The notes beneath the pieces are model-generated. The model was not told where the DNA came from and searched no databases. It worked only from the letters and a program-made list of their open reading frames with translations. Positions 13,084-62,739 of a stretch of DNA of 64,000 bases are shown here, piece by piece. A program made the position numbers and the translations under genes. Position 1 is the stretch's first letter, and each line of letters starts with the position of its first letter. Source of the stretch: an uncultured archaeon (lineage in GTDB: Archaea; Asgardarchaeota; Lokiarchaeia; Sigyniarchaeales; SOKP01); NCBI GenBank assembly GCA_964632315.1, contig CAZWEM010000001.1, positions 64,001 to 128,000 of the forward strand, in the 5' to 3' direction.

Positions 13084-13190
13084 TTTTAAAATTACTTAGG
13101 ATTTACTTAATTATTAAAAGATGAGAATTTTTATAATTTTTAACTTTGATACAAATATAAATAATCTCTTAATAATAAAGTGATTAATCT

Positions 13191-14102
13191 ATTTACATCG
13201 AAAAAGATGAAGAATCAAGCAAAGAAGAACTGTTGAATTTAATTAAACAATCTAAAGAAAGACTTGATGATTTAGAGAAAATAGGAAAAAATTCAGAATA
13301 CATTAAAGAATTAAGCAATTTGGCTCTACTACAAATAGAAAACGACGAATTTGAGGCATCTAAAGATAATTTATTAATTTGCTTAAAACATTTTAAAAAA
13401 CAACATGATAGACTTGGAAAAGCAGCAGTATATGGTTTATTGGGAACTCTCTATTTCAAGAGTGAATTGTATGAAGAATCTATTAAAAATTATGAATATG
13501 CCAAAGAAATCTATACTGAACTCAATCAACCTGGGGAACTAATCACTTGTTTGAAAGGTATAGGTAACTCTTTAATTAAGTTAAATAGATTAGAAGAAGC
13601 TTCTGATACTTTCTTTAAATGTACTGCCATCTGCTCAGATCATAATGACTTGTATAATTTTTTAGATTGTATCGGGAATTTAATCACAATTTATGAAGAC
13701 CTAGACGATTGGGATGTAGTATACCAATTATATCAAAAAAGCCTTGAAGCATTTACAAAACTGAAAGATTATAAGGGAATGATCGTGACTAATTTCAATT
13801 TAGGTATTATTAAAAAAAAGAATGGAGAGTATGATAATGCTTTAAATTATTTTAAAAGTGGCACTAACATAGCAATTGATTCAAATTTTGCTGAATTCAT
13901 TGTAAGGGGATTGAGTTATGTAGCAGAATCTCTATTTTATCAAGGAAAAATGAATGAATCTAAAAAGCAATACCTTCGAGCCTTAAAAGTAGCGCGAAAA
14001 GTTAAGATGGATAATGCAATCATACAACTTCGATTACTTCTAAATTCATTTGGTTTAAATGAAAATGATATTGAAAAACAATTAGAAAGTTTAAGAAATT
14101 AA
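13191..14102 (+). CDS. Tetratricopeptide-repeat protein
   Basis: Repeated 40-aa-type TPR helices (LGTLY..YEESIKNYEYA, IGNSL, LGII..YDNALNYF); frame open from TAA 13185; start is ATT 13191 or TTG 13233. Confidence 0.85.
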   Translation: MYIEKDEESSKEELLNLIKQSKERLDDLEKIGKNSEYIKELSNLALLQIENDEFEASKDNLLICLKHFKKQHDRLGKAAVYGLLGTLYFKSELYEESIKNYEYAKEIYTELNQPGELITCLKGIGNSLIKLNRLEEASDTFFKCTAICSDHNDLYNFLDCIGNLITIYEDLDDWDVVYQLYQKSLEAFTKLKDYKGMIVTNFNLGIIKKKNGEYDNALNYFKSGTNIAIDSNFAEFIVRGLSYVAESLFYQGKMNESKKQYLRALKVARKVKMDNAIIQLRLLLNSFGLNENDIEKQLESLRN

Positions 14103-14176
14103 GTGAAAGACATTCATAATTAATTTTAAATGAGCAAAGTCTTATTTATTTTATAAACCTTCTAAAATTGTTTTGA

Positions 14177-60006: not shown

Positions 60007-62052
60007 ATGTCAGAACATAACTTACAAATCTGTCGATTTTGTCAAAGAAATATACAGTTGGCATACTATTGTGAAGATTGCGGAGTTAGTTGTTGTTCTG
60101 ATTGCCTTCATGAGGAAAAAAATGAATATTTTATATGCCAAGACTGTAATTCCAAAAATATTGAGGCATCTGATTCTGGAAAGAAAAAGTATTGTAAAGA
60201 ATGTGGTAGTGAAAACTTAACTCAATCAAGCCAATTACTAAAATCGTGCCCAAAATGTCATTCCACATCAATAATAAATATATATGAGAAGAAGGAAGAA
60301 TTAGAAAAGAGTTTCTTGAACTTAATTAAAAATGTACGAAATTTTTTAACTCCTTTCAGCGAATTAGTCAACTCAATGTATCAATTAAGGCAAATGATAA
60401 AAAATGCTAGAGCTCCCCCTATAAAATGCTTTCACTTTTCCAACCTTGAACCCGATTTGTTAGCTTTATTCAAATTACTTGTTTATGCTAAGGATAACTT
60501 CCATGAAAAGATTACAATTTTGTTCAATCATCTCTCACTGAATAAAGAATACTTTTTTGATATTTATACTCAACCTAACGCCAATGTAATAATCATCGAG
60601 GGAATATTAGAGAATCTAACTATAAATTATGAATCAATTCAAGAGTATGTTTCGAATAACGTTAAAACAATCAACTCAAGTTTAGATACAATAAAGAAAA
60701 ATCTCAAGTTTATTGATAAAATAACTTATTATTTTGATACATATAAAAAGTATTTGAATTTAGCAGAAGATGAAAAACCTATATATTCAATTCACGCTAA
60801 GCTAGCCAATGGCTTAAATACACATGATAAATACAAAAAAAGTAAAGGAGTACTTTTTATTACCAACTTGGATTTATCTTTTGTACAATTTAGTGGGAGA
60901 TTTAAAAAGAAAAAACAAGCGATTTTTAAAGCACCAGTAAATGATTTGATAAAAATTAGAGTACATGGAAAGGTTTTTAAGAAACTTTATATTGAATTTC
61001 CCTACGGGAGGTATGAATTCACTCTTCCTCCCAATTCTATAAATAAAGTATTAGATTACATTGTTTTAGCTCGAAATTTCGAAGATACAATAAAATTTGA
61101 TGAAGATGCTGCACAAAAATTAGATGAAATTTATATTGATTTAAACGAAATCACAGCATTTATTGAAGAGACTATAAATTCTTTTTTCAGTTTAAAATGT
61201 CAATACAATTCTGAGCATCAAAAGAGTGAACAACAACAGACAAATCAATATTTCCCGAATTTTTCAAATCCACAAATAAGAAATAGTCCTAATCCCGCTT
61301 ATATTAATACTTTTCAAAATGATATCAATAGGAATGCTTATAATCAAGAATTACCAAGAGCTTACTCAAGAGTGTATCCTCCTAACTCCTATATTTATCA
61401 ACCTGGGATAAGAGCAGATAACTCTGATAACTATTATCAATATGGAAATAGAGAACCATTATATAATAAATATGAAAGTAGATTTATCCCACAAACAATA
61501 TTTAATCCTCAAAGAATCCAAAATTATGAATCTTTAAGGTATTCTTCACCTTATAATATGCATTATCTCGATCCTGATGATAAAAATGTCTTAATGAAAA
61601 AATTAGAACAAGCAAATAAAAAGGGGCAATATGATCCTTATATGAGAAACCCCGCCGCTTATAGTCATGAATTGGAATCAAGTAATTTCCACGATAATAA
61701 ATATTATAATGATTTCTCTAAAAATCATCTGTCTGAGTTATTTGATCATGGTGAATTCCTAAATAATCCAATTAAGATGCCTAAACGCTATTCTAAACAA
61801 GTAAGAGAAAAAAGTAAAGAGATGAGTGAATTAGAAAAGGAGAGATATGGATTAGATGAAACCTTAAAAGCATTAGACACGAAATTCGATCAAGGCGTCA
61901 TTTCAGAAGTTGATTATTTTCGAACCTTCAAGAATCTACAAAAACAAATCTATGATATTGACCAAAAAATAGAATTACTGGGACAACAAATCGAAGATAT
62001 GAACTTTAAGCCCCATTTAAAAGATATTGAAGGAAAACGTTATTTTTCTTAA
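60007..62052 (+). CDS. Multi-domain protein: Zn fingers, coiled coil, PH/GRAM-like domain, N/Q/Y/P-rich region, Vps23/TSG101 steadiness-box-like C-terminus
   Basis: Six CxxC pairs at the N-terminus; KGVLFITNLDLSF PH-like signature; C-terminal KERYGLDETLKALDTKFDQGVISEVDYFRTFKNLQKQIY. Confidence 0.75.
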   Translation: MSEHNLQICRFCQRNIQLAYYCEDCGVSCCSDCLHEEKNEYFICQDCNSKNIEASDSGKKKYCKECGSENLTQSSQLLKSCPKCHSTSIINIYEKKEELEKSFLNLIKNVRNFLTPFSELVNSMYQLRQMIKNARAPPIKCFHFSNLEPDLLALFKLLVYAKDNFHEKITILFNHLSLNKEYFFDIYTQPNANVIIIEGILENLTINYESIQEYVSNNVKTINSSLDTIKKNLKFIDKITYYFDTYKKYLNLAEDEKPIYSIHAKLANGLNTHDKYKKSKGVLFITNLDLSFVQFSGRFKKKKQAIFKAPVNDLIKIRVHGKVFKKLYIEFPYGRYEFTLPPNSINKVLDYIVLARNFEDTIKFDEDAAQKLDEIYIDLNEITAFIEETINSFFSLKCQYNSEHQKSEQQQTNQYFPNFSNPQIRNSPNPAYINTFQNDINRNAYNQELPRAYSRVYPPNSYIYQPGIRADNSDNYYQYGNREPLYNKYESRFIPQTIFNPQRIQNYESLRYSSPYNMHYLDPDDKNVLMKKLEQANKKGQYDPYMRNPAAYSHELESSNFHDNKYYNDFSKNHLSELFDHGEFLNNPIKMPKRYSKQVREKSKEMSELEKERYGLDETLKALDTKFDQGVISEVDYFRTFKNLQKQIYDIDQKIELLGQQIEDMNFKPHLKDIEGKRYFS

Positions 62053-62088
62053 AATAGAAGATAAATTATGAAAAGGAATTAACTATAA

Positions 62089-62739
62089 TTAAGATCCTTC
62101 TAATTCCTTCCTCAACTTTTCGATTTCATCCTCCAATTTCGCTTTTGTACGAATTTCAGGTTCTTCTTCATCATCAAATTCAGAAATGTATTGTAAATCA
62201 TCTACAGGAACATCTGGTACTTGTCCACTCTGATCTAATAGCATTTCAGTTTCAAGTTGGTTAAGTTCATCTGTCACATCAATTGCTAGGTCAATTTCAG
62301 GATCTCCTGCTAATATCTCAGCAGATTCTTCTATCTCTGAAACGTAAGCCTCAGAATCTTCTGCTATTTCTGCTATTCTAGTGGGAGCTGCCTTTGTTGC
62401 AATTGTCTCTAATTCATCCCTAATTCCTCCCATTAAATCACCAGTCATCGAAATCATTTGTCCTTCTTCAATTGCTTCTATTTGCCTTTCAATTTTTGCT
62501 CGAATATTATTCGCTCTATCAACTTTTTGTTGATATTGTTTAAATTGAATCAAATAATTTTTAGCTCTCTCCCGCTCGCCTCTTTGTAAAGCAATTTTTG
62601 CGTTCTTTCGTGAAATTTCCGCTCTTTTATTATATGTTTTATTCGCTAATGCGATCTTCCGGATATGTGATTTTGCTTTTGTCACTAATTCTTCTTTTTC
62701 TTGGTCTTTTCGAGGGAATAATTTTTTTTTAAGTCCCAG
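62089..62739 (-). CDS. ESCRT-III subunit, Snf7 (Vps20/32/60-like) family
   Basis: (M)GLKKKLF N-terminal helix; AKIALQRGERERAKNYL..KIERQIEAIE hairpin; acidic C-half with VPDVP (MIM2-like) and EDEIEKLRKEL (MIM1-like). Confidence 0.9.
   Translation of the reverse strand: MGLKKKLFPRKDQEKEELVTKAKSHIRKIALANKTYNKRAEISRKNAKIALQRGERERAKNYLIQFKQYQQKVDRANNIRAKIERQIEAIEEGQMISMTGDLMGGIRDELETIATKAAPTRIAEIAEDSEAYVSEIEESAEILAGDPEIDLAIDVTDELNQLETEMLLDQSGQVPDVPVDDLQYISEFDDEEEPEIRTKAKLEDEIEKLRKELEGS

Follow-up and report, generated by a model that had tools for sequence, protein, structure and literature searches.

The 64,000-nt stretch of DNA analysed here, referred to below as the window (G000:C1:64001-128000), belongs to a 4.45-Mb genome (G000; 119 contigs, 31% GC) that the public names of close homologs place in the Lokiarchaeia/Promethearchaeota. 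Five of its genes have conserved N-terminal sequence upstream of the first in-frame ATG, GTG or TTG, as a first-pass annotation of the sequence had proposed: those for a TPR-repeat protein, a Gtr1/RagA-family GTPase (Rag), the aminomethyltransferase GcvT, a Ras-family small GTPase (pseudo-Rab) and an ESCRT-III protein. The sequence, Pfam matches and orthologs all confirm this. In all five, the sequence from the upstream stop to the conserved N-terminus is free of in-frame ATG, GTG and TTG, and ortholog alignments of roughly 20–30 species show protein-level conservation, with synonymous changes, in the stretch ahead of the first such codon. The five open reading frames (ORFs) are otherwise intact. 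An in-frame stop lies 1–3 codons upstream in four of the five, and a Shine–Dalgarno (SD)-like motif precedes each start by a few nucleotides, both as first described.

Throughout, ATG, GTG and TTG are counted as canonical and ATT, ATA, ATC, CTG and ACG as near-cognate codons, and d is the distance from the first G of the GGTGA-type SD motif to the start of a codon. The window was compared with more than 30 species of the same genus, among which its synteny is well kept. Features are listed in Table 1.

Table 1. Genes with probable near-cognate starts or with TTG starts in the window and their SD-like motifs
Feature	Coordinates	Strand	Remarks
SD-like GGAGTTGA of ESCRT-III	62746..62753	-	motif TGA in frame; GAGTTGA / GGAGTGA kept in congeners
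ESCRT-III (Snf7-family) from CTG 62739 (d = 11)	62089..62739	-	Pfam Snf7
SD-like AGTGGTT of pseudo-Rab	42792..42798	+	anti-SD pairing via G-U wobbles; followed by A5 run 42799-42803
Ras-family small GTPase (pseudo-Rab) from ATT 42803 (d = 11)	42803..43324	+	context TAG TGG TTA AAA ATT
SD-like GTGAT of TPR gene	13180..13184	+	ATT 13191 at d = 12; in-frame TAA 13185-13187
TPR-repeat protein from ATT 13191	13191..14102	+	Pfam TPR_12; upstream context TAA TCT ATT
GGTG SD core of gcvT	29801..29804	+	GGTG-N5-start kept in 19/20 same-genus orthologs
Aminomethyltransferase gcvT from ATA 29810 (d = 9)	29810..30898	+	alternative ATT 29813 (d = 12)
GGTGA SD of Rag GTPase	28895..28899	-	TGA in gene frame; GTG in -1 frame
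Gtr1/RagA-family GTPase (Rag)	27941..28891	-	candidate starts ATT 28891, ATA 28882, GUG 28898 + slip
ftr	25939..26844	-	TTG 26844
beta-CASP	35153..36460	+	TTG 35153
gcvH	30913..31317	+	TTG start
Further TTG-start gene	16986..18623	-	
Further TTG-start gene	39079..40272	-	

Start positions of the five genes in orthologs

The ESCRT-III gene (PF03357, 35.1 bits against a cut-off of 27.3) is the cleanest of the five cases. The position of its predicted CTG start, already chosen in the first-pass annotation, is homologous to canonical starts in 21 of 25 congeners (ATG 11, GTG 9, TTG 1); three further congeners have an in-frame GTG two codons upstream, and G043 also has CTG, with an upstream canonical codon absent. 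Only AGC AAG CTG separates the in-frame TGA from Gly2, and the first canonical codon, GTG 62685, lies 18 codons in. The N-terminus GLKKKLFPRK is kept with synonymous codon changes. An exact-pattern scan of metagenome contigs for independent contigs over the CTG returned no match.

Pseudo-Rab matches the Ras domain (PF00071, E = 8e-29) with a degenerate GMPNTEKD in place of the canonical GxxxxGK[ST] P-loop; its ortholog in G013 also has a degenerate P-loop. Position 1 of the Ras profile is residue 7 counted from the ATT, and the first ATG (42839) is residue 13, at profile position 7. In the one clear ortholog (G013) and in every paralog (MSSFKLK) an ATG stands where the window has this ATT, in agreement with the start first assigned. 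Cluster mates from four ENA assemblies, apparently a sibling strain, are called as MVKISSYKL from a GTG. Their DNA reads AGTGGTT-AAAA-TTTCT, with four A and the GTG in frame, where the window has five A. The five-A run is real: it is identical in two independent JGI contigs, and a contig from another study (X4), which covers 42422-42830, shows no difference from the window. The sibling difference may be a neutral change in SD–start spacing (d = 10 vs 11) or the trace of a frameshift behind an ancestral GUG. Directly downstream of pseudo-Rab lies a homolog of the presenilin family (PF01080; 43387-44421, plus strand), assigned from Pfam matches on the sibling contigs.

The TPR gene was regarded from the outset as the weaker case. 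An ATT occupies the same position behind GGTGA in G017 and G018, which bears out the proposed start, and in G017 the first ~45 codons contain no canonical start. In G016 and G012 an ATG lies one codon downstream of the position of the window's ATT. The first canonical codon in the window is TTG 13233, 14 codons in, and the ATT was recovered by the genome-wide SD test described below.

GcvT matches PF01571 (GCV_T; E = 2e-88) and PF08669 (E = 8e-22), both over the full domain, and position 1 of the GCV_T profile is residue 9. Its first ATG, 29870, is residue 20 and lies inside the GCV_T domain; upstream of the start, an in-frame stop is absent for 20 codons. Here the first-pass annotation was right about a non-canonical start and chose a codon, ATT 29813, that is not the homologous one. 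The codon at the start position of GGTG-N5-NNN is ATA 29810 in the window; among 20 orthologs it is TTG in seven, GTG in three, ATG in one, ATT in two, CTA in two, and TTA, TTC, CCT and CTG in one each. The ATT that follows is a conserved second codon (Ile), found in 15 of 20 same-genus orthologs. Orthologs whose first codon is TTC or CTA, and whose SD has GTA in place of GTG, lack a canonical codon altogether, and these species would have to use ATT or ACG. In the window the start may be ATA 29810 or ATT 29813, either of which looks usable.

Rag matches PF04670 (E = 4e-23), with profile positions 1–146 corresponding to residues 3–148 counted from ATT 28891, and has a P-loop, GPANAGKT. On the minus strand its 5' sequence runs from GGTGA (28899-28895) through TGA AGA ATT(28891) TTT AAA ATA TTA TTG(28876), and the GGTGA has its complement in the 3' end of relatives' 16S, GGAUCACCUCCU. 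With a start at TTG 28876, beta-strand 1 would be lost. Seven species begin MKILLFGP with ATG; at that position, ten have ATA behind GGTGA-N6, with the TGA of the motif in frame and the GTG out of frame; G070, G089 and a 93%-identical sibling group have ATT; and an 85%-identical group has GTG. The window, G016, G001 and G006 have TTT there, preceded by ATT in the window and by CTT, CTT and TTT in the other three. The lack of a canonical start asserted in the first-pass annotation stands; its choice of ATT 28891 is uncertain, since the codon is CTT, CTT or TTT in the three closest species. In G016 a canonical start is absent before the P-loop. The start may be ATT 28891, at a marginal spacing of d = 8; ATA 28882, at d = 17 and kept in all four species of the window's clade; or GUG 28898 followed by a +1 slip at TTT-TAA (28889-28884). 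Initiation at AUU 28891 would give M-FKILLFGPANAGK and the GUG with a slip MKNFKILL.

The window's Rag spacer is one base longer than that of its siblings (GTG AAG AAT TTT/T AAA). The homopolymers between the SD-embedded GTG and the gene body in Rag (28886-28890) and pseudo-Rab (42799-42803) are each one base off those of close siblings; such differences shift the GTG in or out of frame and amount to a recurrent length polymorphism of the SD spacer (d = 10 vs 11).

Near-cognate codons accumulate at the SD spacing genome-wide

We examined 3,619 long, non-overlapping stop-to-stop ORFs of G000. Ahead of confident ATG starts, G is enriched at -14 to -8 and GGTGA at -11 to -7; a perfect piece of AGGAGGTGATC of at least 5 nt precedes 16% of these genes, and ATG peaks at d = 9–12 behind the SD. 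SD-led genes make up about 12–16% of all genes in G000, and near-cognate use is therefore a property of a minority gene class. Whether their start is canonical or not, 74–75% of SD-led genes follow a gene on the same strand, against 58% of the rest, which fits a use of the SD by genes internal to operons.

Near ORF 5' ends, 246 orphan SD sites have no in-frame canonical codon within 17 nt. At d = 11, the codon is near-cognate at 47/102 in-frame sites (46%) and at 10/139 out-of-frame sites (7%; Fisher p = 1.7e-12); for strict GGTG sites the counts are 31/51 vs 6/58. The enrichment is specific to this spacing, which is shared with ATG: the near-cognate share is 7–18% in the same frame class at d = 5, 8, 14, 17 and 20, and 7–24% at distances other than d = 11, so that away from this spacing and out of frame it remains close to 10%. 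AAG and AGG are without enrichment.

At d = 11–13, 75 ORFs qualify (ATT 30, ATA 26, ATC 7, ACG 7, CTG 6), where ~23 are expected by chance, beside 429 SD-led canonical starts (ATG 325, TTG 74, GTG 30). Beginning at the first canonical codon would cost at least 10 codons in 52 of the 75. The number of genes with a near-cognate start is most likely roughly 50–75. In ten candidates searched with Pfam, nine matches begin at profile positions 1–4 within 13 residues of the near-cognate codon. The profiles of the supported N-termini start 2–13 residues in, and the first canonical codon lies 6–51 codons inside: 49 for uS10 (ATA start), 51 for a Ras GTPase (ATT) and 36 for V-ATPase D (ATT). Further starts with such support belong to arcTGT, IscU (ATC), a CopA HMA domain and URO-D. 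Scoring codon usage from the upstream stop up to the first canonical start, independently of any SD, gave an excess of ~10–35 ORFs depending on the threshold; it has low power in an AT-rich genome and was not used.

TTG starts are frequent, as first noted. TTG stands at the position of the orthologs' ATG in ftr, beta-CASP, gcvH and two further genes of the window, and it outnumbers GTG among the SD-led starts of the genome. Contigs C74, C90 and C108 are GC-rich, unlike the 31% GC genome, and are likely contamination of the bin (stated contamination 8.6%); C74 gave one false candidate in the SD test.

Recurrence in relatives

The same pattern is found in other genomes. In pooled syntenic DNA of five congeners, 5/8 codons at d = 11 are near-cognate. 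Over 1.2 Mb of G032, which belongs to a different family of the order, the figure is 8/21 at d = 11 vs 18/205 at other in-frame distances (p = 8e-4). In 800 kb of G116, from a distant and equally AT-rich Asgard family, sites are too few for a clear peak: 2/6 are near-cognate at d = 11, with two strong SD–CTG cases. A window-wide survey of ~50 gene families against the five congeners found ~12 of ~270 starts to be non-canonical, including ATA at the ATG position in a HADH-like gene of G008 and in the gene at window position 51178 in G018 and G017. Among ~25–30 species, canonical and near-cognate codons swap at one aligned position while the residues downstream are kept. Together with the d = 11 peak and the Pfam N-termini, this recurrence in congeners and in another family supports the relaxed, SD-guided choice of start codons suggested in the first-pass annotation, as far as it can be read from sequence. 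Our literature search found no paper on non-canonical starts or on self-control by aIF1 in Asgard archaea.

Truncated proteins in public annotation

The public calls for Rag, gcvT and pseudo-Rab are N-truncated, which upholds the expectation that annotated proteins of this lineage are systematically so. The Rag call, of 289 residues, starts downstream of the P-loop, and so do more than 12 calls in siblings; the gcvT call has 342 residues, and the pseudo-Rab call has 161, from ATG 42839. Standard gene finders take only ATG, GTG and TTG, so that a few per cent of the proteins of these Asgard genomes are deposited N-truncated. Eukaryotic-signature proteins are among those hit, with Rag lacking its P-loop, ESCRT-III its conserved basic N-terminus and small GTPases beta-strand 1. 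Such truncation distorts structure prediction, phylogeny and functional inference on eukaryogenesis.

aIF1, 16S and tRNA genes

The gene for aIF1, the proofreader of start codons, has no canonical start in 37 of the 42 genomes of family f1, to which G000 belongs. In relatives its start region reads AAAGGTTG TGA AAA AAG AGT ATT AAA GAC ... and then, at the zinc ribbon, ATT TGT CCx. In these 37, one position behind the SD always holds ATT or ATC: ATT in the window's genus (21/21 genomes), g12 (8/8), g13 (3/3), g15 (2/2) and g17 (1/1), and ATC in g16 (2/2). GTG is used in g14 and g18; TTG, ATG or ATA in the second family (f2); and, at d = 11, either CTG or ATA in a further three Asgard families. 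The ATT start in relatives suggests that aIF1 may limit its own synthesis. G007 has a second, divergent aIF1 copy (L190, G007:C23:10657-11229; 58% identity) with ATG/GTG starts, beside the ATT-initiated one.

In the G000 assembly aIF1 (PF01253) was not found; it is present in 21 of 26 congeners. Loss of aIF1 as a cause of relaxed initiation was considered and rejected, because G000 lacks the genes that flank aIF1 in G016 as well, and this locus is next to the 16S gene, which indicates an assembly gap. In G016 a single contig carries both aIF1 (L188, from G016:C23; 6191-6529, minus strand) and the 16S gene (G016:C23:39074-40238), ~9 kb apart. This proximity is the probable reason that aIF1 is absent from several metagenome-assembled genomes (MAGs) of the genus that are complete in other respects, including G000. 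The 16S gene is likewise absent from the G000 assembly; the anti-SD was taken from G008, G017 and G032, and was confirmed at the 16S 3' end of these relatives.

A tRNA with a CAU anticodon was not found in G000 by ARAGORN (11 and 30 tRNAs, in runs with and without introns) or Rfam (20 tRNAs). Many tRNA genes of G000 are probably intron-bearing or unassembled. The genome has a tRNA-Sec (TCA).

A proposed mechanism and its alternatives

Very probably, the near-cognate starts AUU, AUA, AUC, CUG and ACG are read by the ordinary initiator Met-tRNA behind an SD. A GGUGA-type motif of the mRNA would pair with the 3' end of the small-subunit 16S rRNA, GAUCACCUCCU, as an SD duplex and so bring into the P site the codon that starts ~11 nt from the first G of GGUGA and 6 nt past the motif. 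The lineage would tolerate a one-base mismatch between codon and anticodon at a P-site codon placed in this way. Such a mechanism would cover CUG 62739 of ESCRT-III, AUU 42803 of pseudo-Rab, AUU 13191 of the TPR gene, AUA 29810 or AUU 29813 of gcvT and, probably, AUU 28891 of Rag. According to PMC6237735, initiation complexes on non-AUG mRNA are made less stable by aIF1, and SD-led mRNAs are pre-positioned, with local scanning in the P site. Both the decoding by initiator Met-tRNA and a tolerance tuned by aIF1 are steps that we infer. The conserved AUU start of aIF1 would let the factor limit its own synthesis, like IF3 (infC) and eIF1; according to Ivanov 2010, as cited in PMC6237735, eIF1 autoregulates through its own AUG in poor context.

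For Rag and pseudo-Rab only, the ribosome could instead initiate at the GUG within the GGUGA-like motif and then slip by +1, at GUG AAG AAU UUU/U AAA in Rag (UUU, with UAA in the A site) and at GUG GUU AAA/A UUU in pseudo-Rab (AAA-A). We consider this unlikely. In the 93%-identical Rag sibling, GTG AAA AAC ATT AAA is in one frame, and the window's AAG AAT is synonymous with it in the GTG frame; TTT-T-AAA, with its TAA in the GTG frame, is kept in all four species of the window's Rag clade. The four-A pseudo-Rab called from GTG in the sibling strain points the same way, and a TATA-like TTTTAAAA, read from the sequence ~26 nt upstream of the Rag GGTG, fits a near-leaderless GUG. However, this GUG has no SD of its own, and the A5/U5 runs are short for efficient slippage. 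An SD spacing of 10 rather than 11 is in itself enough to decide whether the GTG is in frame; a neutral change of spacer length therefore accounts for the sibling difference just as well. The Rag congeners with ATA (ten) or ATT (three) at the ATG position have the GTG out of frame. Frameshifting also leaves ESCRT-III, gcvT, the TPR gene and the genome-wide accumulation at d = 11 unexplained.

It is very unlikely that AUH codons are read by a second initiator tRNA dedicated to them or by a modified anticodon. The failure to find a CAU tRNA or an initiator stem-loop in an incomplete tRNA inventory leaves room for one, but AUU, AUA, AUC, ACG and CUG are one-mismatch neighbours of AUG at all three positions. 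This set therefore fits one CAU anticodon with relaxed proofreading and not a single alternative anticodon. Moreover, AUA aligns with Ile or Val inside genes. An altered code, in which ATA would mean Met, was considered separately and rejected, as ATA aligns with Ile, Val and Leu inside genes.

That translation begins at the first downstream ATG, GTG or TTG, as annotated, with proteins that are truly N-truncated or genes in decay, is scarcely credible. Public gene callers pick such starts, and the P-loop of pseudo-Rab is already degenerate. Against this, a downstream start would leave Rag without its P-loop or beta-strand 1, GCV_T without 11 positions, Ras without six and uS10 without half of its length, and the Rag gene of G016 has no canonical codon ahead of the P-loop. 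The codons upstream are conserved as protein with synonymous changes in 20–30 species, in ORFs that are all otherwise intact.

Sequencing or assembly errors (homopolymer indels or substitutions) that removed canonical starts from the MAG have a negligible probability: a T run at 28886-28890 or an A run at 42799-42803 one base shorter would put GTG in frame, the indels named beforehand as a refutation, and a four-A variant exists in the sibling strain, but Logan contigs of four runs from four studies are free of indels across 28700-43000, the X4 and both JGI contigs match the five-A version exactly and equal non-canonical configurations occur in many independently assembled species, and error is excluded on these grounds.

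Several points weigh against near-cognate initiation by the ordinary initiator tRNA. The whole case is built on the comparison of sequences, and a search for RNA runs that contain the locus gave none. Rag fits poorly: it has TTT at the optimal spacing, its ATT 28891 lies at d = 8, and the three closest species have CTT or TTT instead of that ATT. The sibling strain with four A has its GTG in frame; the GUG may be ancestral and the window's version of pseudo-Rab slip-dependent. The aIF1 and 16S genes of G000 are unassembled, so that the argument from aIF1 rests on congeners. Finally, a search of G000 for an initiator-type anticodon stem-loop returned T-arms only, and a special tRNA is possible.

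Significance and comparison with known systems

Among SD-led genes, near-cognate starts reach a frequency comparable to that of GUG (ATT 30 and ATA 26, GTG 30). With such a start on aIF1 itself, the evolution of stringency control (IF3, aIF1, eIF1) becomes directly testable in cultured Lokiarchaeia. We think it possible rather than probable that start-codon stringency is a regulated variable in Lokiarchaeia and, patchily, across Asgard archaea, in which self-limitation of aIF1 would hold a permissive set-point and so maintain a sizeable set of SD-led genes with near-cognate starts. If so, it would be an archaeal forerunner of the eukaryotic non-AUG translatome controlled by eIF1.

The putative slip site in Rag, UUU UAA A after GGUGA and kept in four species, resembles the +1 frameshift of prfB (CUU UGA C, with an upstream SD). 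Unlike in prfB, the putative zero-frame start lies inside the SD, the spacing is 5 nt and not 3, and there is no stimulator at 3 nt. A prfB-like model also touches only two of the five genes, and is superfluous where Rag congeners have ATA or ATT in place of the ATG.

In Escherichia coli, infC and pcnB have near-cognate starts behind an SD that are weak and depend on proofreading factors, and NCBI table 11 lists alternative initiators. Like the bacterial AUU, AUA and CUG starts, the codons described here are near-cognates with the usual spacing from an SD, and the initiator tRNA presumably reads them. Unlike in bacteria, the host is an archaeon with a eukaryote-type set of factors (aIF1, aIF1A, aIF2). 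Bacteria have a handful of such genes per genome, whereas here they would amount to ~1.5–2% of genes, roughly one in eight of those that are SD-led, and include the housekeeping genes for uS10 and V-ATPase D.

Bacterial IF3 limits its own synthesis through the AUU start of infC. As in the autoregulation of infC (IF3) and eIF1, the gene for a start-codon proofreader, aIF1, lacks a canonical start; the feedback proposed here by analogy would operate in the same manner. Unlike in these systems, some genera among the relatives use GTG, TTG or ATG for aIF1. Near-cognate initiation in eukaryotes, at CUG, ACG or AUU and under the control of eIF1/eIF5, is alike in that the homologous factor, eIF1 or aIF1, polices pairing in the P site and the same one-mismatch codons are used. 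It differs in how the start is found, by scanning and a Kozak context in eukaryotes and by SD pairing here, and in the codons that dominate, which are AUU and AUA here and not CUG.

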